Of a DNA stretch of 40,819 nucleotides, positions 3,702-30,684 are shown in pieces. Below the pieces are notes generated by a model that worked only from the letters and a program-made list of their open reading frames with translations, was not told the origin of the DNA and searched no databases. The stretch's first letter is position 1; each line of letters opens with the position of its first letter. Source of the stretch: Verrucomicrobiota bacterium (GTDB lineage Bacteria; Verrucomicrobiota; Verrucomicrobiia; Limisphaerales; CANJXF01); the NCBI GenBank assembly GCA_038214755.1, contig JBBQRQ010000043.1, forward strand, positions 1 to 40,819, written 5' to 3'. A program made the position numbers and the translations under genes.

Positions 3702-3704
3702 GTC

Positions 3705-11384: not shown

Positions 11385-11387
11385 CAT
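10977..11387 (-). CDS. four helix bundle protein (23S rRNA IVP / S23 / bAvd-like family)
   Basis: [10 protein letters not shown]...[51 protein letters not shown]; alternative start at 11354. Confidence 0.92.
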
Positions 11388-14300
11388 CTCTCCATCACAA
11401 ACTCGTCATGGTTCATCAACGTGTTTATCAGAACGGTCATGGCGGCAACTTCATCTTCCGGAAGTTTTGTGTCGCGCGAATGTTCGCCGGTCGCCAGATA
11501 TTTTTTGGCCGCTTCCCCATCCGTCGTGAAAATTTCCAATTGCTCCTGATAAAGTTGGCGGAGAATTTCTCGTTCGCGCGCTTGCGGAATTCGGCCAATC
11601 ACCAGACGGAAAACGTTTTCGATGCAGCTATTAAGGTCGTCCGTTTTTTCCCGCAGAATTTTTTCGGCCAGCACCCGGCCAGCCTCGATAAATTGCGGAT
11701 CGTTCAACAGCACCAACGCTTGCAGCGGTGTCGTGGTTGGCTCGCGCCTCGCCGTGCAAACTTCGCGAGACATCGCATCGAACGTCAGCATCGACGGCGG
11801 GGGCGCGGTGCGCCGCCAAAAAGTATAAAGGCTGCGCCGATAAAGTTTCTCGCCTTTGTCCTGCGCGTAGGTCTTGCCGGTGCCGGATTGCTCCCAAAGT
11901 CCAGCGGGCTGATATGGCTTCACACTCGGTCCGCCGATTTTCGGCGAAAGCAATCCGCTCGTGGCCAGCGCCGCATCGCGAATTTCTTCGGCTTGCAAAC
12001 GATGTTTCGGCCCGCGCGCGAGCAAACGGTTGTCGGGATCAGCGGCGACTAATTCCGGCGGCGCAACCGATGACTGCCGATACGTGGCTGACGTGACGAT
12101 CAGTTCATGCAATTTTTTTACGTTCCAACCGCTCTCGACAAAATTTTTCGCCAGCCAATCGAGAAGTTCCGGATGCGTCGGCAATTGTCCCTGGCTGCCG
12201 AAATCTTCCGGCGTCGCCACCAGCCCGCGACCGAAGTGCATTTTCCAAATCCGGTTTACCACCACCCGCGCAGTGAGCGGATTGCGCGGATCAACCAACC
12301 ATCGTGCGAGGCCCAGCCGATTTTTCGGATACTTTTTTGGAAAAGGAAAAATGCCTTCCGGCGTTCCGGATTCGACCGCGTCACCCGGCGCATCGTAAGC
12401 GCCGCGTTTCAAGACGAAGGTGGGACGGTGCGCCGTCATTTCTTTCATCACCATGATCTCGCGGATGTCATTGACGAAATTGTTTTCTGCGTCGCGCAGT
12501 TTTTTCAATTCGGCCAGCCCGTTTTGATATTCGGGATCAACGCGATTGAGAAAAAGCGAGAAGAGATCTTTGTTTTCATTCGGTGGGGCGAGGCTCCGCC
12601 GAGCCTTGTCCGTCGCGGCAGGCGACGCGAGTGAAACAAACCTCTTATTCGTCTGTGAATGGATACTTGCTCTGCTCCCCTGGCTTCGCTCGAAATTTTG
12701 CTCGACGGAGTCTCGCCCTACCACTTCTTGCCCCACTACTTTTTTGAAATGTGCTTTCACCTCAAAGCCCGTCAAACAGCGATCAAAAACCTCGAACTCA
12801 TCGATCAATCCATTTTTGAATCCGGAATCGCGGAAACGGGCCGCGAGTGTGAGCGGAATATTTCCAACATCCGCGTCGCCCCACTCGGAGCGATACAAAA
12901 TATCTTTAAATAAATTGTCGCGGATAATTTCGATCTCGGCTATTTGGCCATTGAGAAAAATTTTCAAACCCGCCGCGCGGCTCGAGCCATCGTAAGTAAT
13001 CGCAAGATGCGTCCATTCATTTTGCGGAAGCGATTCCTTCGCACGAATCGAAATCGCGTTTCCCGGCCAGAAATGAATCAGGGCAAAATTTGGTTTTGCA
13101 TCTTCCAAAATTAACTGGTAGCCACGGCTGCCGGCGTCTGTCCAGGAACGCGAATGATGAAAGATCACGGCGCGTTTTTGTTTCTCGGTGGGCTTGAGCC
13201 AGAGCGCAAATGAAAACGGATCAGTGCGTTTGAAATCGCCGATGCCTTTGCTAACGACGGAATTTTCGCCATCAAATTTCAAAGCGTTGCCGATACGACC
13301 TTCGACTTGTTTCGGATTTTCAACGAGTGACGCTTGAATCTTTCCATACACATCCGGCGTCTTGCCGTCCGCGATTTGCTCAAAAGAAAAGTGAGCGACA
13401 GGATGATCGGTATATTGGAGGAGACCTGTCGGAAGCGAATTATCGTGGGTAGCATCTGCCTCCGGCGGGTGCGTGAAGACAGTCTTCGTTTTCTTAAGAC
13501 CCGAAGCGATTTCGCACCCGCCGGAGGCAGATGCTACCCGGAGTTTGTCTTCCCATCGCGCGAAATTTTCTTTCGCCGACTTTTCGACGCGCTTCAATTT
13601 CATTTCCTGTTCGGAAATTTGCTTTTTCAGCGCCGCGTGTTTTTCCTTCTCCCCATTTTTGTAGAGCAAAAGAGTCGGCGAAGGCGTGGCGTGAGTGAAG
13701 TGCGAGTAAAGTCCCGACTCGTCGATGTTGTTGAAGAAGGCGGAGAGCCGATAATAATCCTTCTGTTTGATCGGGTCGTATTTGTGATCGTGACAGCGCG
13801 CGCATTCGAGGGTCAGACCGAGAAACGCCGTGCCGAAAGTGTGAACGCGATCCGAAACATATTCATTGCGAAATTCTTCTTCGATGCTCCCGCCTTCGTT
13901 CGTCTGGCGATGCAAGCGGTTAAAAGCGGTCGCCAAAATTTGTTCATCCGTTGCGTCCGGAAATAAATCCCCGGCGATTTGCCAGAGGATAAATTTATTG
14001 TAGGAAAGATTTTTGTTGAATGCGCCAATCACCCAATCGCGCCAGGCCGACATATCGCGGTCCACGTCGGATTGATAACCGTACGTGTCGGCGTAACGGG
14101 CGAGGTCGAGCCAATCATTGGCCATGTGTTCGCCGTAAGCGGTCGATGCGAGAAATTGTTCCACCAATTTTTTGTAGGCATGGGGCGAAGTGTCTTTGAG
14201 AAAATCGTCAACCTGTTTGAGCGATGGCGGCAAGCCGGTCAAATCAAACGCTAGTCGGCGAATCAAAGTTTCTTTAGTGGCTTGGGGAACGGGCTGAAGG

Positions 14301-14953
14301 TTTTCTCTCTGCAATCGCGCGAGCACAAATCGATCAATGGAATTTTGCGCCCAATCATTTTTTATTTTCGGCACGGAAATTTTCTTCGGCGCGAGAAAGG
14401 CCCAATGCGTTTTGTATTCTGCGCCTTCCTCAATCCATTTGCGAATCAGCGCGATTTCCTCTGAACTTATCTTTAAATTGCTATCAGGCGGGGGCATTTG
14501 TTCATCAGGATCGACGGAAAGGAGGCGGCGAACGAGTTCGCTCTTTTCCGGTTTGCCCGGGACGATGGCGCGGAGTTCCGATTTTTTACCACGAGCGGCG
14601 AGCGCGCCTTCCGCCGTGTCCAACCGCATATCCGCTTTGCGCGTTTTCGGGTCGGGCCCGTGACATTTGAAACAGCGGTCCGAAAGAATCGGGCGAATTT
14701 GAAAATTGAAATCGACTCTCTCAGACGCTGGACGTTCCGTCGCTTTGGCAGCAAGGCTGGTGATGCCTAAAATAATTAAAGCTCTGTAGAGCACGATGGA
14801 GTTTAACCCCACACTTGAGCGGCGAAAAATGAAAATGTTGAAACGACCGCTCTTCTCAAACCTGGTTGCAATGCGGCGGCCCGTCTCAGGGCGTGGGAAC
14901 CCAGCCTCTTCCTGGAATGTATTCGCGGCTGCCGGAATTGGATTTGCAGCCAC
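11384..14953 (-). CDS. planctomycete cytochrome c / DUF1549 / LamG / DUF1553 multidomain protein
   Basis: [14 protein letters not shown] (CxxCH), [21 protein letters not shown], LamG-like [33 protein letters not shown]; true start probably nearer 14794. Confidence 0.9.
12582..12722. repeat. REP doublet (family B) in-frame inside the DUF1553 gene
   Basis: GGTGGGGCGAGGCTCCGCCGAGC ... GCTCGACGGAGTCTCGCCCTACC, 141 bp; largely intergenic sister at 33079-33165. Confidence 0.88.
13447..13539. repeat. REP doublet (family A) in-frame inside the DUF1553 gene
   Basis: GGGTAGCATCTGCCTCCGGCGGGTGCG ... CGCACCCGCCGGAGGCAGATGCTACCC, 93 bp; arms identical to the intergenic copy at 3705-3874. Confidence 0.92.
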
Positions 14954-15064
14954 TCCATAAAGTCGTGCCCAAAAGGGCGACCAGCGCCAGAAGATAAATT
15001 TTTTTCATCTTTCAATCTATTCCGATTTGTCATGTCGGCAACCTTGTTGCAAACTAATCGGCAG

Positions 15065-15625
15065 ATGGCTGAGATTCCAAAGTATCTCAAGGGGCAACTC
15101 CTGCTGGACGGCGGGAAACTCAACGGATCGTTTTTCCATCGCACGGTTGTCTTAATCTGCGAACACAATTCCGAAGGCGCGCTGGGACTTATCCTCAATC
15201 GCTCCAGTGGAAATAAAGTTGGGGAAATGATCGTGGCGGATTTGTCCGAAACTTTGAAAGAACAATTGCTGTATCTGGGCGGCCCGGTGCAACCGGCAGC
15301 GCTCAGTTTTTTGCACAGTGAGGATTTCCTTCCTGACGCCAACGTGTTGCCGAATTTGAGCGTGAGCCATTCACTGGAAGATCTCGTCGATCTGGGTGAA
15401 TCGTTTTCCAGCAGCCAAAAGGTAAAAATTTTTGCGGGTTATTCGGGATGGACTTCGGGCCAGCTTGAGGAGGAGATGGAACGAGGGGCGTGGCTAACTT
15501 ATCCCGCGTCGCTCGATCTGATTTTCAAAACGGAGCCAGGTGAACTTTGGAAAAATATTCTGGATAAAAAAGGTTGGGAGTTTCGCCTGACGGCGCAAAG
15601 CCCGGAGGATTTGTCGTGGAATTGA
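15065..15625 (+). CDS. YqgE/AlgH (UPF0301) family protein
   Basis: FHRTVVLICEHNSEGALGLILNR, YLGGPV, FAGYSGWTSGQLEEE...W. Confidence 0.93.
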   Translation: MAEIPKYLKGQLLLDGGKLNGSFFHRTVVLICEHNSEGALGLILNRSSGNKVGEMIVADLSETLKEQLLYLGGPVQPAALSFLHSEDFLPDANVLPNLSVSHSLEDLVDLGESFSSSQKVKIFAGYSGWTSGQLEEEMERGAWLTYPASLDLIFKTEPGELWKNILDKKGWEFRLTAQSPEDLSWN

Positions 15626-15745
15626 GGGCGAGCGATATCAACGCAACGACGCCAGGAAACAAAGACGCCAAGGTCAGGACTGACAACTTTGCGCCGAACT
15701 GGATTTGAACTCGTCGAAAGGTTTTCCAGCCCTTGCCTCTTCGCG

Positions 15746-16621
15746 TTAAGCCGATTTCCGCAAAGATTTCAGCGCCAGCCACCACGTGAAAATTGTGATG
15801 GCCGCTAAGAGAATCACGCAGAATAAGTTTGTCGTTCTTCCTCGAAACATCCTCGGCGCGAAATGCAAAATGAAACCGAGAATTGCGCCAAAGAAAAATC
15901 CGCCGACATGCGCGATGATGTCGGTTCCCTCCGAAAACCCCATCAACACCAAAACAAGAAAGGCTGCTGCTGCTCCGCGCCGAATTAAATAAGTGCCGCG
16001 CGTCTGTTTCCACGCCGCGATCCCTTCCACGCCCAGCAAGCCAAGCGCGCCCATGATCATTCCAGACGCGCCCAAGCCCCGATGCGGATCGGGATAAAAA
16101 ATGTATCCGGCAAAATTTCCACCTGCTCCTGCGACATACGCAGCGAGCAACGCCACGCCCGCTCCGTAACGCGCCATTGCCATTCCAAAAAGTAAAAATC
16201 CCGTCGTGACATTGGCGATGAGGTGGGCCGCATCGGCGTGGAGGGTGACCGCCGTAAACAATCTCCACCATTCTCCTGCGGAGACCGCATTATTGTCATT
16301 TATTCCCAGAGTCCTGAGCGAAGAGTTGGGGGCCTCGCTCAAAATGAAAAATGCCACGAACAAAAGACAGGGACCGATTCCGCCCCAATGAAAAATCAAA
16401 CCAGTGCCGGGAAACTTTTGCCGCCAGTTCCAGCCGCGATTCTCGCGTTGATACAAATCGATTGCGGCGAGAGCGCGCTGGTAATCACTTTCCGCGACCA
16501 GCAATCTCCAGCTTGCTTCATGGGTAATTTCCGTTTCGATTTCCTGACTGGCGAGGACCAGGCTCCAATCCATCACTTGCCGTTTGGTGCGAGCGGGGAT
16601 TTCCCTGAGCAATGGTTCCAT
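15746..16621 (-). CDS. rhomboid family intramembrane serine protease
   Basis: GEWWRLFTAVTLHADAAHLIAN, GASG catalytic Ser, AHVGG catalytic His; start uncertain. Confidence 0.92.
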   Translation of the reverse strand: MEPLLREIPARTKRQVMDWSLVLASQEIETEITHEASWRLLVAESDYQRALAAIDLYQRENRGWNWRQKFPGTGLIFHWGGIGPCLLFVAFFILSEAPNSSLRTLGINDNNAVSAGEWWRLFTAVTLHADAAHLIANVTTGFLLFGMAMARYGAGVALLAAYVAGAGGNFAGYIFYPDPHRGLGASGMIMGALGLLGVEGIAAWKQTRGTYLIRRGAAAAFLVLVLMGFSEGTDIIAHVGGFFFGAILGFILHFAPRMFRGRTTNLFCVILLAAITIFTWWLALKSLRKSA

Positions 16622-16788
16622 GTTGTCCGAATTTATTTCGCTGTTATCTTTTGGCGTCCGGCAGTGATACCAGACTATGTCTTTAGCGAACATAGATAAC
16701 GGCAGTGAGTTCTCCGGCCCTTTTGCTCTCCAAATTTCTTCTCCACGGGCGGCACGGGATTTGCAGCGTTTTTTCGATTGCAACTACT

Positions 16789-17502
16789 ATGAAAATGATC
16801 CGACCTAATTGCAGGATTCAATTCACGGCGGAAGATATTGTGTTTATTACTCGCGTTTTAGGAGTGAAAACGAACAGTTCCGAGTCATTGGTTATGCTGT
16901 TGACTGAGCCGGAGACGCGCGACTTGATTCTTGATGACGAGGGGCTGTTTCGCGCATTGCTCGAAGAAACGGGCTGCCTGCGAGTGTCCGATCATTTTTA
17001 TTTTTACGTTCTGGTCCGTCACGTTTTGCGCGACGCCAGAATTGAAGACCGATCCGTCGCGGATTACGTCGCGGAAATTCTGACCGAATACTCTCGCAGC
17101 GGACAAAGTCTTTGCGTCATTCCGGGGCAAACCAATCCGCTCGATTATTTTTTTGAGATGCTGGGCGCGCTCCGCACGGCGGACGAGCGAACCAGTTTTT
17201 TGCTTCGCGCGCACATTGGCAATCATTCTCTCTTTCTTTCCGGCGTGTTTCCGGAGCGAATCCGTTTTCGCTCCGAGTCAAAAGGCTTTCCAGATTTGAA
17301 ATATTATCAGGAAGTGGGGAGAGCGAATTTCAAGGTGGCCAGTAATCATCGCCTCGCGCGGAAGTACGAACTCGCGCCAATTTTTTCTTTGCTGTCGGAA
17401 AATTTCGAGTCGGCGCGACGTGCTTTAAATGATTTGGCCGAACGCATTTTTTCGCTCGGAGATAACGACCGTTTCGTCCAGGCGCTCTTGCGGCAAAATT
17501 GA
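16789..17502 (+). CDS. conserved hypothetical protein
   Basis: 237-aa ORF with natural composition (FYFYVLVRHVL, HIGNHSLFLSGVFPE); function not recognised. Confidence 0.75.
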   Translation: MKMIRPNCRIQFTAEDIVFITRVLGVKTNSSESLVMLLTEPETRDLILDDEGLFRALLEETGCLRVSDHFYFYVLVRHVLRDARIEDRSVADYVAEILTEYSRSGQSLCVIPGQTNPLDYFFEMLGALRTADERTSFLLRAHIGNHSLFLSGVFPERIRFRSESKGFPDLKYYQEVGRANFKVASNHRLARKYELAPIFSLLSENFESARRALNDLAERIFSLGDNDRFVQALLRQN

Positions 17503-17760
17503 GATTCGCGGCCGTCCTATTCAGTAAAGAAGATTGTTCGCCCTCACCCTAAACCCTCTCCCCCGAGGAGAGGGAAAAGCCATCGGTGCTTGGCGGACAA
17601 CCCGCGACCAATTTGGAGTAAAGACCGAAGGCGGCCAAAAACTGGGAGAAGAAAACCAACTGGCCCAGCGGGGTGACCGGGGGCAGAGGATCCCATTCCA
17701 CACGCCGGTGGCGAGCGCGTTGGTGAAAGGCTCAAGGATGTCTCAACCGATAAGAATGAA

Positions 17761-17980
17761 TTGGCTCCTCGACGTTTTCAGTGGAATGACCTGCATTATT
17801 GTTCGCTGCTATTACTTGGTGACGCGGGCAAAAGCGGTGGAGGGCCACCGCACTCCAAGACGCTATCGCGCTGTTTAGGCCTCCTCGAAATTCGCGTGAG
17901 CGTCTTGGAGTGCGGTGGCCCTCCACCGCTTTCAGGGGGGACAACCGACTCCTATTCCACTGAAAATGTCGAAGATCCAA
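17761..17980. repeat. nested inverted repeat: imperfect 27-bp outer IR around a perfect 34-bp REP doublet
   Basis: outer ttggctcctcgacgttttcagtggaat / attccactgaaaatgtcgaagatccaa; inner AAAGCGGTGGAGGGCCACCGCACTCCAAGACGCT at 17831-17864 with complement at 17899-17932. Confidence 0.85.
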
Positions 17981-18177
17981 CTGCTGTGATGAACGGCAAG
18001 GGCGGACTCCCCTTGGCTTTATTGGCGCGACGAATGATATCGTTTGGGTGGGGCAACGCTTCACTCAAAAGAAATAGCTACGGTCAACGACGTATTTCCA
18101 ACGAGAGGCCATGACCTCTCTTCTGTGGGAGTTAAGTCGCATGCCCAAGTCTGCTCGAGGCCGAACCAGGAAATTAT

Positions 18178-19629
18178 TCAAGCCGCCGCCGTTTTTGCCG
18201 CGGCCAAATCATCACGACGTTGCGCCATTGATTTGAAAAATTCGTAACCTTCGCGCAAACGCCGAACGCAAACGTCTTTGTCTTCCAGCATGGTCTTGAC
18301 GATGCGGAGAATTGGTTTCGGACGCAGATAGTAGCGGCGATAAAATTTTTCCACCGACTCGAAAATTTCTTCCTTGCTGAGTCCAGGATATTCCAGCGCG
18401 CTTTGTTGGAAGCCATCGTTATGGACGATGTCGCTTTTGTCTTTCTTGGCGAACCAACCATTTTGCCGGGCCATTTCGTAAAGCTCCGTTCCGGGATAAG
18501 GCGCGGCGAGAGAAACTTGAATGCTGAATACGTCGAGGTCCATCGCGTACCGCACGGTTTGTTCAATGGTCTCTTTGGTTTCAACGGGCAAACCGAGAAT
18601 GAATGTGCCGTGAATGATCACGCCAAGTTCTTTGCAGGCTTTGGTGAATTGCTTGGCCTCCTCGAGATTGATTCCCTTTTTGATGCGATTGAGAATGTCT
18701 TGATTTCCCGATTCGTAGCCGACGAGGAACAAGCGCAAGCCGCAATCTTTCATCAGCTTGATCGTTTCGTAATTTACATTCGCGCGGCTGTTACAACTCC
18801 AGGTCATGCCGAGCGGTTTCAACTTTTGCGCGATCTCTCGCGCGCGCGGCAAATTCGCGGTAAACGTGTCGTCGTCGAAGAAAAATTCTTCCACTTGTGG
18901 AAAAAGTTTTTTCGCGTGAGCCATTTCCGCAGCCACGTTGTCGGCCGAACGAACGCGATATTTATGTCCGCCAATCGTCTGGGGCCACAAACAGAAACTG
19001 CATTGCGCCGGGCAACCGCGACCGGTGTAGAGCGAGAGATAGGGATCTTTGAGGTAGCCGATGGAATATTTCTCGATGGTCAAATCGCGTTTATAGACAT
19101 CGCTCACCCACGGCAAGACATCCATGTCTTGAATCAAAGCGCGCTCTTTGTTGTGCACGATTTTTCCATCTTTCCAAAATGAAAGTCCATCCACTTCCGC
19201 GAGCGGTTTTCCATCCGCCACTTCTTTGCAGGTGAAATCGAATTCTTTGCGACCAACCCAATCAATTGACGGTGAAGCTTTGAGAGTTTCCGTCGGCATC
19301 ACTGCGGCATGCGCGCCGACGAAACCAATCGTCGTGGCGGGCTTCTGCGATTTGATGGCCTCGGCGACTTTGCAATCGTTTTTCAACGAAGGCGTGGAGG
19401 TGTTGATGATGACGTGATCAAAATTTTTCGCTTCGGCCAAACAGGTTTTGACGTCGATGTCGTGCGGCGGGCAATCCATCAATTTGCTGTTGGGCACGAG
19501 CGCGGCCGGTTGCGCGAGCCACGTCGGATACCAGAACGAGCGAATCTCGCGCTTGGCCTGATAGCGCGCGCCCGCCCCGCCGTCGAAACCGTCGAAACTT
19601 GGAGGTGAAAGAAAAAGTGTTTTGCTCAT
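18178..19629 (-). CDS. hpnJ: hopanoid biosynthesis-associated radical SAM protein
   Basis: TLFLSPPSFDGFDGGAGARYQAKREIRSFWYPTWLAQPAALVP; GRGCPAQCSFCLWPQT (CxxxCxxC). Confidence 0.93.
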   Translation of the reverse strand: MSKTLFLSPPSFDGFDGGAGARYQAKREIRSFWYPTWLAQPAALVPNSKLMDCPPHDIDVKTCLAEAKNFDHVIINTSTPSLKNDCKVAEAIKSQKPATTIGFVGAHAAVMPTETLKASPSIDWVGRKEFDFTCKEVADGKPLAEVDGLSFWKDGKIVHNKERALIQDMDVLPWVSDVYKRDLTIEKYSIGYLKDPYLSLYTGRGCPAQCSFCLWPQTIGGHKYRVRSADNVAAEMAHAKKLFPQVEEFFFDDDTFTANLPRAREIAQKLKPLGMTWSCNSRANVNYETIKLMKDCGLRLFLVGYESGNQDILNRIKKGINLEEAKQFTKACKELGVIIHGTFILGLPVETKETIEQTVRYAMDLDVFSIQVSLAAPYPGTELYEMARQNGWFAKKDKSDIVHNDGFQQSALEYPGLSKEEIFESVEKFYRRYYLRPKPILRIVKTMLEDKDVCVRRLREGYEFFKSMAQRRDDLAAAKTAAA

Positions 19630-19633
19630 AAAT

Positions 19634-20047
19634 TTATTTTTTCGGAAAATATTCAGGCAAGCTGCGGCGAATTAATTCCAGCATCTCACCCATTTGTTCG
19701 CGCAGATTTTCGTAATCGTCGCCCAAGTCTGTTGTGTCCGAACCCGGATAATGTTGCGCGAAAAAATCCTCGGTTAGATCAGCGGCAAACCGCTCGAATG
19801 ATTTGAATCTGTCATCAAGTTTTCCAGCTTCACGAATTAAGCGGCTAAGATCGTGGGTCTTGACCAATTCCCAACCTCTCGCAATTAAATAGCCTTTTAG
19901 AAAACGCTCCGCCGCCTCTTGCAAAGTTTCAATTCCACTAGCCGTCAGTCCTTCCGTTCGCCAAAGAATATCCGCTGCCCGCAACCGCTCATCAGCGAAA
20001 GCAAACCAGTCTGAAGGCGATTTTTCGCTAGTTTTTTTACGCAACAT
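19634..20047 (-). CDS. HEPN domain protein
   Basis: DWFAFADERLRAA, LQEAAERFLKGYL, KTHDLSRL, HYPG. Confidence 0.88.
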   Translation of the reverse strand: MLRKKTSEKSPSDWFAFADERLRAADILWRTEGLTASGIETLQEAAERFLKGYLIARGWELVKTHDLSRLIREAGKLDDRFKSFERFAADLTEDFFAQHYPGSDTTDLGDDYENLREQMGEMLELIRRSLPEYFPKK

Positions 20048-20429
20048 ACAACTCCACTCCCTTGGAGAAAATATCCTCAAAGATGAAGCTGTGCTGCGCC
20101 AGTTTTTGCTCAACCTGTTCCGGAGTTTTTGAGAGTAGAGTGAACGAAAGAGGCGGGGCGGGCACTTCGTAAAACGCCATCCGAATTTCCACATTACTTT
20201 TTTTTTCGGAAGAAATGTTTTTCCGGACGATCAGCAAATCAACATCACTATGTTGGGTTGGTTGCCCGTAAGCCTGGCTGCCAAACAGAATAATTTTCTG
20301 AGGATGAAACTTTTCCACAATTACTTGCAAATAAGGCTCCAGTTGACTCGCAATTTTGTGAACGGGATAACGCGCGTCGCGCAAAGCGGGAAAATGGATG
20401 GTTTCGGAAATCATCAGGAGTCCATTCAT
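20037..20429 (-). CDS. minimal nucleotidyltransferase (MNT)
   Basis: KIILFGSQAYGQPTQHSDVDLLIV (GS-x10-DxD); overlaps the HEPN gene. Confidence 0.9.
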   Translation of the reverse strand: MNGLLMISETIHFPALRDARYPVHKIASQLEPYLQVIVEKFHPQKIILFGSQAYGQPTQHSDVDLLIVRKNISSEKKSNVEIRMAFYEVPAPPLSFTLLSKTPEQVEQKLAQHSFIFEDIFSKGVELYVA

Positions 20430-20635
20430 GCGTAGGCAAGCCGCCCTTTTGGTTCGGGAATTTCGCGCCCCAACTCTTTGGCCGTTTCAATCCATTCTCC
20501 AATGACAACGTCGATGTTCTGCAAAGCTTCTTCTCGCGTCCTGCCGTTCGCCATGCCACCGGGCAGTTCCGGCACCTCGACCAGAAACGCTTTGTCGCGC
20601 TCGCTCCAATACCTGATGAGTTCGTATTTAGTCAT
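20426..20635 (-). CDS. HicB family antitoxin
   Basis: YWSERDKAFLVEVPELPGGMANGRTREEAL...GREIPEPKGRL. Confidence 0.9.
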   Translation of the reverse strand: MTKYELIRYWSERDKAFLVEVPELPGGMANGRTREEALQNIDVVIGEWIETAKELGREIPEPKGRLAYA

Positions 20636-20883: not shown

Positions 20884-20885
20884 TT

Positions 20886-22289: not shown

Positions 22290-22292
22290 AAT

Positions 22293-22529
22293 TTAATTGG
22301 CTTGTGCCAGTTCGTTGGCAGACTCCGGTGGTGAAATGGGCGGAGGGGTTTGTTCTGACGGGGCTTTGTTTTGCACAAGTCCAGGCAGGAAGAAACTCAA
22401 TGGCGAAACACTGCGAGAGGCGTTGATGCCGCTGCAACCCGCGCCCAATAAAATGATGGCAGCGAGAACTGCCAGCCGCGGAAGAATCCAATTCAATTTC
22501 ACAGTGGCGAATATAAAAGAGGTCAACAT
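22293..22529 (-). CDS. small putative lipoprotein
   Basis: Hydrophobic stretch ending in LGAGC lipobox, then SVSPLSFFLPGL; 3 bp upstream of hpnH. Confidence 0.6.
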   Translation of the reverse strand: MLTSFIFATVKLNWILPRLAVLAAIILLGAGCSGINASRSVSPLSFFLPGLVQNKAPSEQTPPPISPPESANELAQAN

Positions 22530-22701
22530 GATAGCAACTTTTAATTGTCCCTCGCCAAAGAACAGCACGTATCCTGGAAGCGCCTCCAACGGGATGGAGT
22601 CGGCCATAGTAGCGCAGTGCGTCTCGCCTGCGCCTCTCGCCCCTTTCTCCCTGCGCAGGCGCTACGCGCTCCACTACTTTGGGATATTCGCCCGATGCAG
22701 C

Positions 22702-23523: not shown

Positions 23524-23531
23524 CTTTGCCT

Positions 23532-23942
23532 ATGAAAACTTTTCTCTCCCGGTTTATTTCTTTGTTAAGAAGTGGCGTCCGGCGCATTTCAATTTTGCTT
23601 TTGTTGAGCGGCCTGTTCTGGTGCGGATGCGCCAGAATGAAATCCTGGGTTCCGCATTTTTCGAAAAAAGAGAAACCAACTCCCGCGCGCGCAACCAAGC
23701 CGGTGGCAACTCCCCTTATTTATGACTTGGGAAAAATCGCGAGGGTGGACGCCAACGCGCGTTACGTGGTGATGACTTTTCCTCTGGGCGGTGCTCCTGC
23801 AATGGATCAGCGGCTCAATGTGTATCGCAACGGGTTGAAAGTGGCGGAAGTCAAAGTGACCGGCCCGCAACGCGACAATAATACCGTGGCCGATATTATT
23901 TTGGGGCAGCCGCAAGTGAACGACGAAGTGAGGGCGGATTGA
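23532..23942 (+). CDS. putative lipoprotein
   Basis: LLLLSGLFWCGC signal; C-terminal beta-rich domain (LNVYRNGLKVAEVKVTGP). Confidence 0.7.
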   Translation: MKTFLSRFISLLRSGVRRISILLLLSGLFWCGCARMKSWVPHFSKKEKPTPARATKPVATPLIYDLGKIARVDANARYVVMTFPLGGAPAMDQRLNVYRNGLKVAEVKVTGPQRDNNTVADIILGQPQVNDEVRAD

Positions 23943-23947
23943 TTCTA

Positions 23948-24110
23948 AAATCCGAAATCCGAAATCCGAGAGCCGAAAGAAATCCGAGAGCCGAAAGCCG
24001 GGAACTCCGCGGAACTGGGCGGGCGGCAAAACAATTTTCTGGGGCGCTGGCGAGTCGTTTCGGATTTCGGACTTCTTTCGGATTTCGGGGATTCGGATTT
24101 CGGATTTCGG
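23948..24110. repeat. inverted heptamer arrays without an internal gene
   Basis: AAATCCG-like array 23948-24004 and CGGATTT-like array 24058-24110, between convergent genes. Confidence 0.88.
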
Positions 24111-24111
24111 T

Positions 24112-24417
24112 CTAAGTGGCTTTGGCGGTTTTGGCCGCAGGTTTTTTTCGATAGGGCGAAGAAAGGTTGAAATAAATTCCACAAAGCGGACGCCCATTTT
24201 CCGTCTGGCTGAGAATAATCGTGATCTGTTTATCGAGCGCGATGCCGTGGCGCAGGTTGGTCCCTCGGCTCAAGTAAGCTTTGATCGCTTTGTCCACCAG
24301 CCGCTCCAGCGCTTCGCCGCATTCCTCGGGAGTCTTGTCGAGGCATACGACATATTTTTCAAAATTCCTGACCGCTTCGGAAATTTCCTGCGTGAACATT
24401 TCAACTGTCAAATCCAT
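24112..24417 (-). CDS. hypothetical protein
   Basis: 101-aa ORF with plausible promoter TTTACA...TAATTT just before ATG. Confidence 0.7.
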   Translation of the reverse strand: MDLTVEMFTQEISEAVRNFEKYVVCLDKTPEECGEALERLVDKAIKAYLSRGTNLRHGIALDKQITIILSQTENGRPLCGIYFNLSSPYRKKPAAKTAKAT

Positions 24418-24471
24418 GGGGCAAAATTAAAACCCCATCCCTCAGATGTAAATTCATTATCACATCAGGGA

Positions 24472-24675
24472 GGGTGTGATTAAAAGTGGGTGAGGTTGGA
24501 ACCGATCTTATTTTGGACTGCGGGGACACGTCCCCGCTTTGACTGCACGGTGGAAAAGCCGGAAAGGTTCTTCATTTTGCGCACTTGCTCCACCGCGGAA
24601 CGTGCAGGAAAAGCGGCGTCATGCCGCCGCAGTCCAAGAAACCAAATCCAGCCTCACCCGCTTTTAATCACACCC
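24472..24675. mobile_element. MITE with ~29-bp TIRs and 9-bp target duplication, carrying a REP doublet
   Basis: TIRs GGGTGTGATTAAAAGTGGGTGAGGTTGGA / TCCAGCCTCACCCGCTTTTAATCACACCC; direct repeat CATCAGGGA at 24463-24471 and 24676-24684; inner TTGGACTGCGG...CCGCAGTCCAA at 24513-24637. Confidence 0.88.
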
Positions 24676-24752
24676 CATCAGGGAAGCTTCAAGACAGAGC
24701 GTTGCCAACGGGATAGGTCTTGCCGCTGCCGTTCGTCGCGTGGGTGCTAAAC

Positions 24753-26321
24753 CTATGAAAGCGAAGCTGTCGCACTACCGCCAAATTTGATTCCTTGCGC
24801 GAGCGGCAACTCCTTCGAGTAATTGATCGTGACGGTCTGCCGCCGCATGTAATTTTTCCAGGAATCACTTCCGCTCTCGCGCCCGCCGCCGGTTTCTTTC
24901 TCGCCGCCAAACGCGCCGCCGATCTCCGCGCCGCTCGTGCCGATGTTCACGTTGGCAATTCCGCAATCACTGCCACGGCCCGATAAAAACAATTCCGCTT
25001 CGCGCAGTTCATTCGTGAAGATCGCGGAACTGAGTCCTTGCGGAACTGAATTGTGCGCGGCAATGGCTTCTTCCAACTTGCAATAAGGAATCAAATATAA
25101 AATCGGCGCGAACGTTTCTTCGTGAACAATTTTGAAGGTCGCTTTGGCCGTGGCGATACAGGGAGTGACGTAGCCACCGCCCGGATAATTCGCGCCGCGC
25201 AATCTTTCTCCGCCATATAAAATTTTTCCACCCTCGCGTTGAAGTTGTTTGAGCGCAACTTGCATTTGTGCAACTGCGCCTGAATCAATCAGCGGCCCCA
25301 TCAGAGTTTTCGAGTCGAGTGGATTTCCGATTTGAACTTGTTTGTAGGCGGCGAGCAAACGGTTCGTCAGGTCGGCTTGAATCGATTCGTGAACAAAAAC
25401 GCGCCGCGTGGAAGTGCAGCGTTGTCCGGCCGTTCCAACTGCGCCGAACAAAATTGCTGGAGTTGCCAAATCTAAATCTGCACTGGGCGCGACGATGATT
25501 CCATTGTTGCCGCCAAGTTCGAGCAACGTTTTTCCCATGCGACGAATCACGGCCTCGCCGACCGCGCGTCCCATTTTTGTCGAGCCAGTAGCGGAGATGA
25601 GCGGAACTCTTTTGTCGTTGGCCAGACGTTCGCCCACACTTTTTCTATCGCCAATCGCGAGCGAGAAAATCGCCGGATCAATTTTGTTGGCGCGACAAAC
25701 TTTCTCCGCAATTTTAATTGTCGCGATGGCGGTGAGTGGAGTTTTTTCGGAAGGTTTCCATAGAGTTGAATCACCGCACACCGCGGCGAGCACGCTGTTC
25801 CACGCCCAGACCGCCACGGGAAAATTGAACGCGCTGATGATGCCCACGACACCCAGCGGCTGCCACTGTTCCATCATGCGATGCTGCGGACGTTCCGACG
25901 CGATGGTCAGCCCGTAAAGTTGGCGCGAAAGCCCGACCGCGAAATCGCAAATGTCGATCATCTCCTGAACTTCGCCTTCGCCTTCGGCTAAAATTTTTCC
26001 AGTTTCGAGCGTGACAAGTTTTCCCAAATCTTTTTTCGCGGCGCGCAGAGCATTTCCAAATTGGCGAATCACTTCACCGCGTTTTGGCGCGGGAATATTT
26101 CGCCAGTTTTCAAAAGCGGCTTGGGCGCTTTGAATGGTTTTTTCGTAGTCGGCCGCAGTGGCGGTGCGGACGCGCGCCAAAACTTTTCCATCGATGGGTG
26201 AAATACTTTTTAGAAGTGGTCCGCTGCCGAGCCACTCGCCGCAAAAGACGCCGGGATTATTTTCTCTGAGGCCGAGTTTTTTCAGGAGAGCGGCAATGGA
26301 TTTCTTATCTTTGGTTTTCAT
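24753..26321 (-). CDS. aldehyde dehydrogenase, ALDH7 / piperideine-6-carboxylate dehydrogenase type
   Basis: GEVQEMIDICDFAVGLSRQLYG, ISAFNFPVAVWAWN, LELGGNN, GQRCTS, GAEIGGAFGGEKETGGGRESGSD. Confidence 0.93.
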   Translation of the reverse strand: MKTKDKKSIAALLKKLGLRENNPGVFCGEWLGSGPLLKSISPIDGKVLARVRTATAADYEKTIQSAQAAFENWRNIPAPKRGEVIRQFGNALRAAKKDLGKLVTLETGKILAEGEGEVQEMIDICDFAVGLSRQLYGLTIASERPQHRMMEQWQPLGVVGIISAFNFPVAVWAWNSVLAAVCGDSTLWKPSEKTPLTAIATIKIAEKVCRANKIDPAIFSLAIGDRKSVGERLANDKRVPLISATGSTKMGRAVGEAVIRRMGKTLLELGGNNGIIVAPSADLDLATPAILFGAVGTAGQRCTSTRRVFVHESIQADLTNRLLAAYKQVQIGNPLDSKTLMGPLIDSGAVAQMQVALKQLQREGGKILYGGERLRGANYPGGGYVTPCIATAKATFKIVHEETFAPILYLIPYCKLEEAIAAHNSVPQGLSSAIFTNELREAELFLSGRGSDCGIANVNIGTSGAEIGGAFGGEKETGGGRESGSDSWKNYMRRQTVTINYSKELPLAQGIKFGGSATASLS

Positions 26322-26378
26322 TTTTTTCCAAGAAGTTGTTTAACCGCGAATAGACACGAGCGCGGCGAAGCCGCAGCA

Positions 26379-26451
26379 ACGGAGCGCCGGTTTGCAAACC
26401 GGCTTAACCTCGCCGCATTGATGCAAAGCCGGTTGCAAACCGGCGCTCCGT
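26379..26451. repeat. REP doublet (GGAGCGCCGG family)
   Basis: acggagcgccggtttgcaaaccggctt ... aagccggttgcaaaccggcgctccgt. Confidence 0.85.
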
Positions 26452-26461
26452 CCATTCGTGT

Positions 26462-27823
26462 TCATTGGTGTGCGTTCGTGGTTTCACTTTGCGTGAGCGG
26501 CTGGCCATACGGCAATTCATCCGGCACTTCGCAGAATTCACCGACCGCTTTCCACAGTTTTGAAAAATCTTTGTTCACATCGCCGGACAAACAATCCGTC
26601 ACATCTCCGGCGAGTTCGGGATATTGGTCCGTCAATTTGCGGAAGCTGAAATTGGGATCGTAAAACGCATAAACGAGCTTGCGCATGTTTTCGATTCCTT
26701 CACGCATGTAGCGGCCGTATTCGCCGAAGCGCGCGGGAGAAAAATCATTTTCGCGAATGGCGTCGGAAACAATTTCCCCAGCCCTCACGCCACTTTTCAG
26801 AGCGAGCATGACGCCGGAAGAAAAAACCGGATCGAGAAAACTGAGCGCGTCCCCAACGAGCAGCAAACCTTCGCTGGCGCAATGATGCGAATGAAATGAA
26901 AATTCATTGGTAACAAAAAATTTCCCGACCTGCTTTCCCTCGGCGAGATATTTTTTGATCCAAAGATTTTGCTCCACTTCGCGCGCGAAGATTTGCGCCA
27001 AATCCTTCACGCCTCCGCGCGTCAGATATTTCCCCTCCGCCACCACGCCCACGCTGACCATGTCGTTGTGTTGCGGGATGTACCAGAACCAGCCTTTTTC
27101 GGGGACGAACGCCACGGTGGTCGCGCCTTCATCAATTCCTTTGTCGCGTTTTGCGCCTTTGTAATAAGTCCAGACGGCGACTTTTTTTAAATATGGATCG
27201 GGCAATCGCCAGCCGTTGCGGACCGCGGCGAAAGATTCTTTGCCCGAGCAATCGAGCGTGATCGGCGCGAAAAATTCCTGGATTGCGCCAGATTTATTTT
27301 TTACGCGAACGCCAACACAACGTGTTGCCGAGATTCTCTCGGCAGAATCGGGGTTTTGCGCGGCATGACTTGAGGAACTTTTCTGCCGAGAGGATCTCGG
27401 CAGCACATTCTCGCGTAGCAATTCCATCACTTTCATTTCTTCGCGAACGACGGCTCCTTTTTCACGAGCGTTGTTCAAGAGTATTTCGTCGAATTCCGAA
27501 CGAAGCACCTGCCAGGTCTGCGCGACATCTTTTTCGTAGCGCGTTTCAAAATAAAATGGCTGCGATGCTTTTCCCGAAGGCGAGACGAATTGAACACTGT
27601 ATTTTTTTGTGAACCGTGACTTCCGCATTTTCTCAATTAGTCCGAGTCGTTGCAGGGGAAAAAAAGTAAAGGGCAAAAGCGATTCGCCAATGTGGTAGCG
27701 CGGAAATTTTTCCCGCTCCAACACAAGAACGCGATGGCCTTGTTCGGCGAGAATGGCGGCGGACGACGCGCCCGCCGGGCCGCCGCCAATGACGATTGCG
27801 TCGAATTTGTTTTCTTTGGTCAT
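26462..27823 (-). CDS. flavin-dependent halogenase-like oxidoreductase
   Basis: GGGPAG, FPRYHIGESL, conserved Lys in FTKKYS, GWFWYIP (WxWxIP), FLDPVFSSGV (FxxPxxSxG). Confidence 0.85.
   Translation of the reverse strand: MTKENKFDAIVIGGGPAGASSAAILAEQGHRVLVLEREKFPRYHIGESLLPFTFFPLQRLGLIEKMRKSRFTKKYSVQFVSPSGKASQPFYFETRYEKDVAQTWQVLRSEFDEILLNNAREKGAVVREEMKVMELLRENVLPRSSRQKSSSSHAAQNPDSAERISATRCVGVRVKNKSGAIQEFFAPITLDCSGKESFAAVRNGWRLPDPYLKKVAVWTYYKGAKRDKGIDEGATTVAFVPEKGWFWYIPQHNDMVSVGVVAEGKYLTRGGVKDLAQIFAREVEQNLWIKKYLAEGKQVGKFFVTNEFSFHSHHCASEGLLLVGDALSFLDPVFSSGVMLALKSGVRAGEIVSDAIRENDFSPARFGEYGRYMREGIENMRKLVYAFYDPNFSFRKLTDQYPELAGDVTDCLSGDVNKDFSKLWKAVGEFCEVPDELPYGQPLTQSETTNAHQ
27322..27406. repeat. palindromic doublet (family C) in-frame inside the halogenase-like gene
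   Basis: GTGTTGCCGAGATTCTCTCGGCAGAA ... TTCTGCCGAGAGGATCTCGGCAGCAC. Confidence 0.85.
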
Positions 27824-27830
27824 TGCTGAA

Positions 27831-27860
27831 TTCGCACCCGCCGGAGGCAGATGTTACCCG
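27831..27860. repeat. single REP arm (family A)
   Basis: ttcgcacccgccggaggcagatgttacccg fills most of a 37-bp intergenic gap. Confidence 0.85.
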
Positions 27861-28439
27861 TCAGGGCGGCAAAATTTCGACGATCTCGGCGAGCGGCCTG
27901 TCCCAGTTATCCACGAGGTTGTTGCGGCGGCCATAGAGGGCATGGGTGCCATTTAATTTCAGCGCGCGATTCATGAAGTCGTCCGAAGTGACGGCGAGAA
28001 AAGTTCGCGGTCGGCTGGAATGAGCGACGTTGAACTGCTTCAAGATTTGGCCGAGCGGACGTTGTTCTTTGAGAATCTCTTTTTGGGCTTCAGCAGAAAA
28101 TAAATCCAAAACGATTTTGATCGCGCCGAATTCAACCGGCTTTTTCGCGCCGCTTGAAAGGAGAACCACTTCGCGAAAATATTCATTCTCATGCGTGTGC
28201 CGCGCCAGCAGTTGGATGTGGATGCTGTCGCCGTGAAATGCTTCCAGACGCGAAGTCATATCGCCTTCATGCACGAGGAGGGATTGGTAAGGCTCCGGGA
28301 TTTCGGTGGGTTCGACGCGGCCGATAACGGGCAAGGGATCGCCGCGCTGCTGATAAAATTCATCGAGCGGATAAACGTCGGAGTAAATCGCGCGCGGGGC
28401 AAAGGCTTGAACTTCTGATTTTTTTTGTGAGTTAGGCAT
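27861..28439 (-). CDS. chorismate lyase-like (UbiC/UTRA fold) protein
   Basis: LLVHEGDMTSRLEAF, YFREVVL, VEFGAI, RPLGQIL, YGRR...LAEIVEILP pattern. Confidence 0.65.
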   Translation of the reverse strand: MPNSQKKSEVQAFAPRAIYSDVYPLDEFYQQRGDPLPVIGRVEPTEIPEPYQSLLVHEGDMTSRLEAFHGDSIHIQLLARHTHENEYFREVVLLSSGAKKPVEFGAIKIVLDLFSAEAQKEILKEQRPLGQILKQFNVAHSSRPRTFLAVTSDDFMNRALKLNGTHALYGRRNNLVDNWDRPLAEIVEILPP

Positions 28440-28450
28440 ATCGGAGACTT

Positions 28451-28663
28451 TCAGGTTTTAGCCAGGGCTGCTTTGCGATGTTGCGGCGAAGTGCGGCCCC
28501 AGTAACCGGGTTTAGTTTTTTTCCCTTCAAAGGAAACCACTTTGCGCCCGAAGGATTTTTCCAACTCCTTCAAATGAGCGACATAGTTGTCCAGATTGCC
28601 ATTGTGTTCAGCGAGCAACTCTTCCCGGTTGCGCCAGACTTCTTCAAGGATTTCGTCTTTCAT
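28451..28663 (-). CDS. small partner (putative antitoxin) of the PIN toxin
   Basis: MKDEILEEVWRNREELLAEHNGNL; 5 bp downstream of the PIN gene. Confidence 0.7.
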   Translation of the reverse strand: MKDEILEEVWRNREELLAEHNGNLDNYVAHLKELEKSFGRKVVSFEGKKTKPGYWGRTSPQHRKAALAKT

Positions 28664-28668
28664 AGCTT

Positions 28669-29139
28669 TCAAGTTAATTCCTGTGGCGTGCAAATGATAG
28701 GGCAACGATAGCCGGACTGTTCGCACAGTGCTTCTACCTTGGGCAGAATCTGCGCGTTATTAATATGTGTGCAATTCCAAGTGAGCAGAAAATCCATCTG
28801 GTGGCATGTCGCGACAGCGATATGCAGCGCATCGATCTGCTTCTTTTCTGGCAAGCTCATCTTGCGCGCCAAGGTCTTGGCTAACACCAGAACCGGCGGA
28901 GTAATATCGAGAGCAGGAATTCCGACCAATTCCTTCAGCCTCGCTTTCGCAGAATCTGCGTCGCCACGCTTGGCTTCATCTTCAACTGCTGCCGAGATGA
29001 ACAATTTGTATTTAAAGCGTTGCGTCGCCCACCATTCGCGAGTGATTTGCTGTTTGGCAGCGGTAACGAGGTGAGCACTACGTCGAGCCGTAAGATAACT
29101 AGGAATCGTCGTTTCAAGATAGACGCTGGCTTTGCCCAT
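28669..29139 (-). CDS. PIN-domain VapC-like toxin
   Basis: VYLETTIPSYL, ISAAVEDEA, DALHIAVA, DFLLTWNCTHINNA, ICTPQEL. Confidence 0.9.
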   Translation of the reverse strand: MGKASVYLETTIPSYLTARRSAHLVTAAKQQITREWWATQRFKYKLFISAAVEDEAKRGDADSAKARLKELVGIPALDITPPVLVLAKTLARKMSLPEKKQIDALHIAVATCHQMDFLLTWNCTHINNAQILPKVEALCEQSGYRCPIICTPQELT

Positions 29140-29145
29140 AAACCT

Positions 29146-30684
29146 CTACGCGTACCGAGCATTTTTGTGTTGTGGCAGAAAAAATTCGTGGAGCAAACGA
29201 TCGACTTGCAAAAGGCCGTCGCGATTCAGTCTGATGATGTCGCCTTCCACTTTTCCGAAACCCCAATCGTGCAGAGTTTGGAGCGGGACAGCGAAACGTT
29301 CGCGAGGATCGACGCCGAATTTCTTCTGAAAATAACCGCAACTCACGTGGCCCAGTTTGAGTTGCAGGACGAATTCGCGGATGAGTTTTTCATCATCAGT
29401 CGGAGTGAGTGCGCGGTAAATCGGCAATTCGCCTTGCGTGATTTTTGTCACGTAAGTCTCGAAGTCGTGATGGTTTTGATAATGCGTGCCGCTGAAATGG
29501 CCGAAGCTCGCCACGCCAAGCGACAGCAAATCCGCGCCCGCCCAAAGTTTGTCGCGATAAATAAATTGGGTGGGTGGCACGGGCGACCCGCCCGTCCCGC
29601 TCGGCGACCCGCCGAGCGGAACACCGGAAGGCGTCGAAGATAAAAGGACTCCCGTATTCAGTTGTGACGTCCCGCTCGTTTCGTCCGGCGAGTCGCCGGA
29701 CGAGACAGGCAAGTGGCCTGTGCTACCCATGTTTTTGCTTCCCGACCTCACCGCCGTGTAAGCGCTGGCGACGGTGTAGCCGACTTTTTCCAATTCGCTG
29801 AACGCGTAATTGACCCACGCGCGTTTGGTGTCCCAATCGGCCACGGGCGCGACGAGTTTTCCCTCGGCTTTCATCTGCTGATAAATCGTGGTGTTGTAGG
29901 GAATTTCCATTTCATAAATCGTCACGCTGTCGGCAGAAAGCTCGATGGTTTTGGCAACGCAGTCGCGCCAGTTTTCCGCGGTCTCCTCCACCATGCCGGC
30001 GATGAGATCAATGTTGATTTGGGGAAAACCAATTTCGCGGGCGTAGTTGTAAGCGCGATAAACTTCCTTGGAACGATGGGCGCGCCCATTGATTTCCAAA
30101 ATATGATCGGAAAAATTTTCGATGCCGAGCGAGAGTCGCGTCACACCCATTTCGCGAATCGCTTTCAACTTGTGATCGGTGAGCGTGCCCGGTTCGCACT
30201 CGAAGGTGACTTCCTCGACGCCATCCCACGAGATGAGTTTTTTCATTCCGTCGGTGAGATGTTTGAGTTGATCGACGGACAAATACGAAGGCGTGCCGCC
30301 GCCGAAATAAACGAAGTTCGCCGTGCGCCCGCCGATGACCGGTTTCTTCGCATAAATGGAAAGCTCCTTCAACGCGGCGTCCATGTAGGCGCGAATCGCG
30401 ACGGAATCTTTGTCGGTGTAAACTTTGAAATAACAGAAATGGCAACGCTTCCGGCAAAACGGGATGTGGAGGTAAATGCCGAGGGGCGGAGTTGAGGGTT
30501 GAGAGTTGAGGGTTGAGAGATAATTGTGCGTTGGCGGTTTTTCGAGCGCGGCCAAAATGTCCGGGACGAATTCCGGTTTCCAAAAAGAGAAAGGCGGATA
30601 GTTGGAAACGAAATAGTTCCCGACGGTCGTTTCCTTTTTCATCGGCGGCTCAGTCGTCTGCGAAATGGGAAGCGTGGTGTTCAT
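29146..30684 (-). CDS. HemN-like (coproporphyrinogen III oxidase family) radical SAM protein
   Basis: YLHIPFCRKRCHFCYF, YFGGGTPS, TFECEPGT, INIDLIAG; contains two repeat-derived insertions. Confidence 0.9.
   Translation of the reverse strand: MNTTLPISQTTEPPMKKETTVGNYFVSNYPPFSFWKPEFVPDILAALEKPPTHNYLSTLNSQPSTPPLGIYLHIPFCRKRCHFCYFKVYTDKDSVAIRAYMDAALKELSIYAKKPVIGGRTANFVYFGGGTPSYLSVDQLKHLTDGMKKLISWDGVEEVTFECEPGTLTDHKLKAIREMGVTRLSLGIENFSDHILEINGRAHRSKEVYRAYNYAREIGFPQINIDLIAGMVEETAENWRDCVAKTIELSADSVTIYEMEIPYNTTIYQQMKAEGKLVAPVADWDTKRAWVNYAFSELEKVGYTVASAYTAVRSGSKNMGSTGHLPVSSGDSPDETSGTSQLNTGVLLSSTPSGVPLGGSPSGTGGSPVPPTQFIYRDKLWAGADLLSLGVASFGHFSGTHYQNHHDFETYVTKITQGELPIYRALTPTDDEKLIREFVLQLKLGHVSCGYFQKKFGVDPRERFAVPLQTLHDWGFGKVEGDIIRLNRDGLLQVDRLLHEFFLPQHKNARYA
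29571..29729. repeat. REP doublet (family D) in-frame inside the HemN-like gene
   Basis: TGGGTGGCACGGGCGACCCGCCCGT ... ACAGGCAAGTGGCCTGTGCTACCCA, plus inner hairpins ccgctcggcgacccgccgagcgg and tcgtccggcgagtcgccggacga. Confidence 0.88.
30491..30518. repeat. heptamer tandem repeat inside the HemN-like gene
   Basis: GTTGAGG GTTGAGA GTTGAGG GTTGAGA, read as LSTLNSQPST. Confidence 0.85.

Follow-up and report, generated by a model that had tools for sequence, protein, structure and literature searches.

GTAG-type REP doublets within open reading frames of a Limisphaerales genome, and different repeats at the same protein loops in its relatives

How do palindromic repeats come to lie inside protein genes without breaking them, and why do they lie where they do? 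A 40,819-nucleotide (nt) contig of a sediment bacterium of the phylum Verrucomicrobiota and the order Limisphaerales (GenBank assembly GCA_038214755.1, contig JBBQRQ010000043.1; the whole contig is called the window here) raises the question, as four palindromic doublets, elements A to D, are read in frame within three of its genes. These doublets are paired repetitive extragenic palindromic (REP) sequences of the GTAG type, that is, REPIN-like hairpins, and the loops that they occupy are filled by other repeats in related genomes. Below, G000 is the genome under study, G001 to G040 are the 40 related genomes used for orthologue comparison, and element and gene coordinates are window positions unless a G000 contig (C number) is given.

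The original prediction, made from the letters of the window, placed four mutually unrelated palindromic doublets in open frames. A sequence check bore out their positions and frames (Table 1). Each consists of inverted REPs around a variable spacer, 85–159 nt in all, with a minimum free energy between -41 and -94 kcal/mol. With short flanks included and compared with 100 dinucleotide shuffles, the fold z-scores were -2.4 for A (over a 252-nt span), -8.4 for B, -4.9 for C and -5.7 for D. The elements are not unrelated but represent four families of one type, given that the tag is GTAG/GTGG at the start of A, B and D and GTGC/GTGT at the start of C; the tag of C is more degenerate than the GTAG variants given by Di Nocera et al. 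(2013; PMC3733652). Single-arm loci number 10 (A), 196 (B), 17 (C) and 14 (D) across the 5.1-Mb G000 genome, with 40–53% of the arms of A, C and D inside genes; D has full-length relatives on contigs C2, C60 and C108. Families A and B also have copies outside genes or at their edges in the window, as predicted. An Rfam search of the window gave 0 matches. All four frames are open; the length of C needed correction, since its 85 nt are not a multiple of 3 and the loss of host bases brings the net change to +27 codons.

Table 1. Repeat elements, their host genes, and other features of the window and of G000; aa, amino acids; RAYT, REP-associated tyrosine transposase.
Feature	Coordinates	Strand	Remarks
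Host gene 1, PSCyt1-PSCyt2(DUF1549)-LamG-PSD1(DUF1553) protein	11384..14953	-	Pfam; inserts A and B; ORF (open reading frame) of 1189 aa; start at 14812 by our own gene caller
Element A, REP doublet, GTAG/GTGG-tagged, long spacer	12582..12722	-	141 nt; in frame between LamG and PSD1; aa 744-791 of the 1189-aa ORF; low-copy family
Element B, perfect REP doublet, GTAG/GTAG-tagged	13447..13539	-	93 nt; arms 27 nt, 100% complementary; aa 472-503; commonest family
Host gene 2, flavin-dependent halogenase-like / FAD monooxygenase, 453 aa	26462..27823	-	Pfam Trp_halogenase/FAD; insert C
Element C, REP doublet, GTGC/GTGT-tagged	27322..27406	-	Inside halogenase-like gene; stem reaching 27319-27409; aa 140-168
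Host gene 3, HemN/HemW-like radical SAM protein, 512 aa	29146..30684	-	Pfam radical SAM and HemN_C; insert D and heptamer array
Element D, compound REP doublet, GTAG/GTGG-tagged	29571..29729	-	Inside HemN-like gene; 159 nt; aa 319-372; net +54 aa
7-nt tandem (heptamer) array in HemN-like gene	30489..30519	-	In frame, other variable loop; +11 aa
Family-B doublet, intergenic, around inverted heptamer array 3743-3832	3704..3874	.	Repeat search
Single family-B REP in 37-nt gap upstream of halogenase-like gene	27828..27860	.	Repeat search
Full family-A doublet at gene end	33080..33165	.	CTAC end is the TAG stop of ORF 33161-33940
PriA, RAYT-bearing	G000:C88:17590-20586
DinG-like helicase, RAYT-bearing	G000:C64:9580-12468
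1439-aa protein, RAYT-bearing	G000:C33:13409-17728
Toxin-antitoxin-/nuclease-like genes	1151-1785, 7128-7454, 19634-20635, 28451-29139, 36553-37229, 38545-39114		Labels presumed from translations

Alignment with orthologues, a check that the original prediction had proposed, gave gaps at D in 23 of 23 other-family genomes and at C in 24 of 28 other rows. The HemN-like loop is 6–7 aa long in those genomes and 61 aa in G000, and the halogenase loop 10–11 aa versus 37 aa. For the DUF1553 gene, the nearest homologues (60–74% identity, N-terminal match) include insert-free versions at both sites. AlphaFold models of the HemN-like and halogenase-like proteins (predicted template modelling scores 0.79 and 0.87) have confident cores and place C and D in low-confidence loops, in line with the proposed insertion into protein loops: local confidence (pLDDT) falls below 50 at 316-366 of the HemN-like protein and at 147-150 and 155-164 of the halogenase, where C occupies a turn between strands 131-139 and 167-175. 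In 81 HemN-like rows, part of them from genomes counted above, insertions of at least 2 aa are confined to two regions out of 420 columns. The variable loop other than that of D holds a heptamer array, missed by the original prediction, whose decayed form is common to the genus. In an orthologue from another Verrucomicrobiota genome (locus L311), that loop, the first variable one, carries a +55-aa REP-and-heptamer-like insert.

Decay of the host genes, or assembly artefacts, could in principle account for such inserts, and G000 is indeed a metagenome-assembled genome, known here from DNA alone. The evidence largely refutes this explanation, which we consider very improbable. Frames are intact, the HemN-like and halogenase-like proteins are 78–87% identical to their genus orthologues, and the radical SAM cysteines C77, C81 and C84 are invariant in the HemN-like orthologues. 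The HemN/HemW-like protein itself scores below every NCBIfam cut-off. Independent genomes carry inserts at the same loops, and essential single-copy genes bear them. One contig of DNA run X1, which is possibly the source sample, covers 26424-30518 without a difference. Contigs from X1 held no clean empty-allele joint at A to D; the joints listed are repeat-to-repeat at 90% likeness.

Genome-wide, the proposed comparison of coding with intergenic copies was carried out from over-represented 18-mers seen at least 12 times, which formed 89 seed groups for a hidden Markov model search. This found 1625 elements in G000, 1442 of REP type and 183 heptamer arrays. Genes were taken from our own dicodon gene caller (3901 genes, 81% coding), and an element was called internal if it lay in frame and at least 50 codons from both gene ends. 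By this definition 132 REPs and 56 heptamer arrays are internal, in 150 of the 3901 predicted genes; 1097 REPs are intergenic and 157 lie at gene ends, that is, REPs are mostly extragenic. The census is a lower bound, because its seeds miss elements A and C; a few internal hits are REPs beside embedded RAYTs. A second class of in-frame insert consists of the heptamer arrays, frequently arranged in inverted pairs; in DusB, IspG, PheS and the HemN-like protein they occupy loops that REPs fill as well. Twenty of the 150 hosts, picked as likely housekeeping genes, were annotated: RecQ, RsmA, AcnA, SMC, IspG, AroA, RecG, AlaS, DnaE, UvrA, YbeY, DusB, PrpD, ArgD, an aldehyde dehydrogenase, DnaX, Fmt, PheS, GatB and PriA. 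A single tblastn hit (E<=1e-30) was obtained for 11 of 14 insert-bearing genes tested (alaS, pheS, gatB, fmt, smc, dnaX, ispG, aroA, ybeY, acnA and prpD). Host genes are long (median 675 vs 286 codons), and 29 carry at least two elements where 9.2 are expected by length (maximum 20 in 5000 draws); their clustering as neighbours was not significant (17 vs 11.6 expected, null maximum 24). Coding copies are more decayed than intergenic ones, with doublets making up 68 of 132 versus 768 of 1097, and the relative score differing at p=4e-5.

The open frames reflect a strong filter. REPs with strongly coding flanks on both sides number 148, and 93 of these keep an open frame. Visual inspection of the remaining 55 suggests ordinary gene boundaries for all but one, which clearly splits a protein. 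For G007, 17 short contigs served as BLAST background only. Since a third (33%) of the frames of the 768 intergenic doublets are stop-free, about one random insertion in nine would leave a frame open; the ratio of 93 open to about one frame-breaking element therefore argues that the filter acts on translation through the element. Among internal doublets the GTAG start falls at codon position 1 in 15 and at position 2 in 17, and both orientations occur. Its absence from position 3 was dropped as evidence, as it follows from the open-frame requirement. The split protein lies in sequence at G000:C42:18393-38745 that we take, from a motif, to be thrS-like; it comprises one long copy and partial copies with 86–95% identity, one of them split at a REP.

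The same counts bear on RNA-level removal of the hairpins, which would leave the protein insert-free and which the original prediction offered as a more speculative alternative. The strong, closed stems speak for it, but efficient removal predicts that about eight of nine intragenic elements would break the frame, the opposite of what is seen. Excision of C (85 or 91 nt) would cause a frameshift, excision in general could not bring back the host codons that insertion had cost, and the window has no Rfam match; of all the explanations considered here we find this one the least credible. With inteins and self-splicing introns, too, a given position in conserved genes is repeatedly taken by different elements. 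The inserts here differ in that they lie in variable loops and not in conserved motifs, in the loss of host codons, and in having neither a splicing domain nor, by comparison with the Rfam library, a catalytic RNA; the frame-breaking copies in conserved genes that mark self-splicing elements are practically absent.

Relatives fill the same loops with different elements. All five genus or family relatives that span the HemN-like site have an insert: hairpins with arms unlike those of D in G002, G005 and G007, a D-like one in G009 and a short remnant in G001. The halogenase loop holds other families in G007, G009 and the distant G034, a decayed insert in G002 and nothing in G008. At site B there is a family-B element in G003, another family in G007 and a weak third (z -1.7) in G021, while at site A two further hairpins are found in G003 and G007. 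Thirteen further G000 sites in 12 genes were compared, six genes with 20 relatives and six with 5, and ten of these sites (in AroA, IspG (twice), ArgD, DusB, RecG, GatB, PheS, RecQ and SMC) are filled by a different repeat in at least one relative. In eight broadly sampled genes, picked because G000 holds an insert in them, 33 of the relatives' 34 hairpin inserts (at least 10 aa and z <= -3) lie at the nine G000 loops; one REP-like RsmA insert at another loop failed the z cut. Three of the 33, and the single one elsewhere, are heptamer-derived. Without G009, an unpublished genome, the count is 30 of 31 and the conclusion stands. These genes have 23 length-variable loops in 3383 core columns, of which 16 ever take at least 10 aa. 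Single-linkage clustering of arms yielded two to six families per site at eight sites; it merged three HemN inserts, giving two clusters where four were distinguished by eye.

Shared ancestry does not account for all of this. One clade of filled alleles was rejected by the approximately unbiased test for the halogenase (p-AU 6e-34), the second IspG loop (1e-137), RecG (3e-5) and ArgD (5e-7), with G040, G002, G006 and G020 left out of single trees and aroA out of the concatenated tree. Host codons have been lost from filled alleles of ArgD (about 5–7 codons), IspG (the whole 10-aa loop), AroA and the halogenase. Because filled alleles have lost host codons, empty alleles are not excision products, and because filled alleles are also non-monophyletic, some of the gains were independent.

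What could have moved the doublets? G000 has 17 Y1_Tnp hits and 12 NF047646 matches as RAYT candidates, and family B flanks one of them: three 27-nt copies with 100% identity surround the NF047646 hit at G000:C88:19423-19836, a RAYT domain within PriA. Other REP families flank other G000 RAYTs. (The truncated rows L011, L027, L028 and L057 were dropped.) The genus includes two members poor in RAYTs, with 0 and 1 matches, and in these, hairpins fill none of 7 and none of 8 loops. From these sequence associations, A to D were presumably spread by the many RAYT (HUH/Y1) transposases of the genome. Whole RAYT domains with flanking REPs are themselves read in frame inside host genes (Table 1), and many relatives likewise have long open frames around their RAYT hits.

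Taken together, these data are best accommodated by a model to which we give a probability of roughly 65%: REP doublets of the GTAG superfamily, spread by RAYTs, survive in the few loops that tolerate them, and these loops are hit again independently and later overwritten. RAYT transposases would spread the doublets, with insertion usually replacing a few host bases. Survivors within genes would be those that keep the frame, lack a stop and fall in a length-tolerant loop, and they would be translated as predicted disordered, roughly neutral loops. With few such loops per protein and heavy REP traffic (dozens of seed groups, more than 1400 elements), independent hits across lineages would be expected, and these two factors probably explain the re-use of loops; the position of inserts would follow from the scarcity of tolerant loops. 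An expanded loop that has lost its original codons could not revert and would offer a larger neutral target, so that later families may overwrite earlier ones in the manner of a ratchet. Of the re-used loops, REP-rich sister species have between 3 of 7 and 6 of 9 occupied; for this count, three halogenase rows that come from the genus but fall outside its clade were taken to be paralogues. Because occupancy by young elements of different families is high, filled loops appear to be overwritten as well. The overwriting might be passive, through the larger neutral target, or active, through RAYT cleavage at resident REPs; the evidence fits both.

Several observations weigh against this model. Within 900 nt of 19 RAYT loci, families A, C and D are represented by nothing but a single A arm, some 760 nt from the RAYT on C64; the assembly is 97% complete, in 175 contigs. 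RAYT number and loop occupancy are weakly correlated, and not significantly so (rho 0.41, p=0.08, 19 genomes, the kin among them not being independent). Three of 17 tested G000 sites (RsmA, Fmt and YbeY) are filled in G000 only, and monophyly of the three filled genus ArgD alleles was not rejected (p=0.07). The DUF1553 family is large and highly paralogous, and orthology there rests on best hits; A and B, which lie in the DUF1553 protein, are also outside the set of structure models. Occupancy is far above a rough neutral estimate of about 0.3% from intergenic density, an excess inflated by shared ancestry and by the choice of sites, and tolerance alone may not suffice.

In a more active alternative, a resident REP doublet or its remnant is a preferred RAYT substrate and is swapped, by cleavage and strand transfer, for the family active at the time, the loops serving as dedicated slots that are rewritten in each lineage. 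Young, near-perfect hairpins of different families in one loop of sister species fit such targeted exchange, as do the confinement of nearly all hairpin inserts to nine of 23 variable loops (or nine of the 16 taking at least 10 aa) and the excess of genes with multiple elements, although the genes were picked because G000 holds an insert. In vitro, TnpA-REP cuts on either side of a REP and performs strand joining (PMC8266576), and partial replacement of a REP class after an 'orthoswitch' has been proposed (PMC3686654). Junctions at one loop nevertheless differ by several codons between species; first gains at one loop occur in distant families with empty relatives between them, where no resident REP was needed; and the loops of DusB and IspG that hold REPs also take heptamer arrays, which are repeats of another kind. 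We regard targeted exchange as unlikely. Only marginally better placed, and still doubtful, is the wider proposition that a limited set of Limisphaerales loops, many in essential enzymes, are exchangeable slots at which RAYTs repeatedly excise whatever repeat is present, together with neighbouring codons, and replace it by a REP doublet of the currently active family. Were it true, each species would carry its own 15–55-residue loop at fixed positions in more than 100 proteins, and the readable empty alleles in relatives would form an in vivo record of the junctions of RAYT insertion and replacement, for which the available parts of the cited REP/RAYT literature offer no experimental demonstration.

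Positive selection, acting for example on messenger RNA hairpins that tune stability or translation, or on RAYT handles in repair and housekeeping genes, seems decidedly improbable as the force that keeps the inserts. Many hosts are conserved replication, repair and translation genes, as in PMC3733652, and hairpins are still strong in many alleles. Selection would not lead one to expect that coding copies decay more than intergenic ones, that close relatives do well with empty or degenerate loops, or that the insert peptide differs in every species, and the long hosts are what random targeting predicts. Of the proposal that this lineage tolerates or selects REP insertion, tolerance therefore holds genome-wide, single-copy essential genes included, whereas the stronger decay of coding copies speaks against selection.

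In-frame GTAG REPs in Verrucomicrobiota are of a published kind. The original prediction had set coding insertion in Rickettsia against normally intergenic REPs; REPs are mostly extragenic here too, but 70 rows of intragenic GTAG REPs are counted for Opitutus terrae in PMC3733652, which reports such REPs and dimers as most numerous in that species and suggests neutral placement in linkers or loops. The G000 elements resemble its GTAG-17/18/19 families: the tag is GTAG/GTGG, singles and dimers are read in frame, a genome harbours several families, a gene can hold several inserts, repair and housekeeping genes are among the hosts, and the phylum is the same. The GTAG-19 peptides GTGVPPV, TGGTPVP and HGRDARAT resemble element D and the inserts of G005. 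The scale is larger, with about twice the coding REPs (at least 132 vs 70 rows), many more families, and heptamer arrays besides. In the available text of PMC3733652, recB of two Xanthomonas species is the only case of inserts at one site, other inserts being at different sites, whereas here loops are as a rule re-used by different families; the table of that paper, uncommented in the corresponding section of text, does contain ASPIC/UnbV paralogues hit at aa 552-651 by three families. As in REPIN-RAYT systems (PMC3116915, bioRxiv 10.1101/2021.07.10.451892, PMC3686654, PMC8266576), there are inverted doublets with a variable spacer, a 5' tetranucleotide tag and RAYTs flanked by their own REPs. 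Those REPINs are described as 'almost exclusively in extragenic space', with single-copy RAYTs (PMC3116915, PMC3686654, bioRxiv 10.1101/2021.07.10.451892), in contrast to 132 of 1442 REPs deep in genes, at least 12 RAYT-like loci and some RAYTs inside host genes. PMC8266576 describes TnpA-REP chemistry in vitro and treats the spreading of REPs by RAYTs in vivo as an open question; the available part of PMC6006769 makes no mention of Verrucomicrobia. Rickettsia palindromic elements (RPEs; PMC10969869) are also palindromes read in frame inside unrelated genes, with RPE-1 of about 150 bp encoding a conserved peptide and RPE-4 and RPE-6 being of the CGTC type (PMC10969869, PMC3733652). The present elements differ in their GTAG-type tag, in two phases and both orientations, in the absence from G000 elements of a peptide conserved in one frame as in RPE-1, and in a host genome that, at 5.1 Mb, is not reduced. 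In a literature search for systematic loop re-use by different REP families, which left most subscription papers outside its scope, no paper was found and PMC3733652 came nearest; serial colonisation of loops with codon replacement thus appears to be a pattern not previously described.

Some further observations concern individual loci. In the aroA loop, G000 (L145) and G013 (L148), which belong to different families and have 70% AroA identity, hold nearly the same doublet, spacer included; the junctions are offset by two codons, and the spacer is similar to further G000 copies at C1 and C93. AroA also contains, beside conserved sequence, three hypervariable segments that are AT-rich, form no hairpin and reach +47 aa (L145-L165, about aa 260-350 of the G000 protein); they differ in nearly every genome and are not explained by REPs. 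DUF1553 paralogues may re-use one loop, judging by a different REP doublet 84 aa after the CxxCHxHK motif in the paralogue at G000:C85:6898-9393, where element B lies 88 aa after it. Another heptamer array of the window is at 23949-24113. Between the DUF1553 and DUF1501 genes, a 136-aa ORF (10977-11387) that we take to be a four-helix-bundle cassette overlaps both neighbours by 4 nt and has heptamer-like repeats at each end. Presumed toxin-antitoxin- or nuclease-like small genes (PIN, PemK, HEPN/nucleotidyltransferase, RelE/HigA, Uma2) interrupt operons of the window (Table 1).

For the study of REPs, intergenic sites are too variable to yield clean before-and-after alleles; coding loops supply both, and in their alleles insertion is accompanied by the loss of host bases and leaves no visible target duplication. 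For the proteins, the set of inserts maps loops that tolerate 15–55 extra residues in the essential enzymes AroA, IspG, ArgD, DusB, RecG, RecQ, GatB, PheS and SMC. In this genome, REPs would supply new protein sequence to about 4% of the genes.

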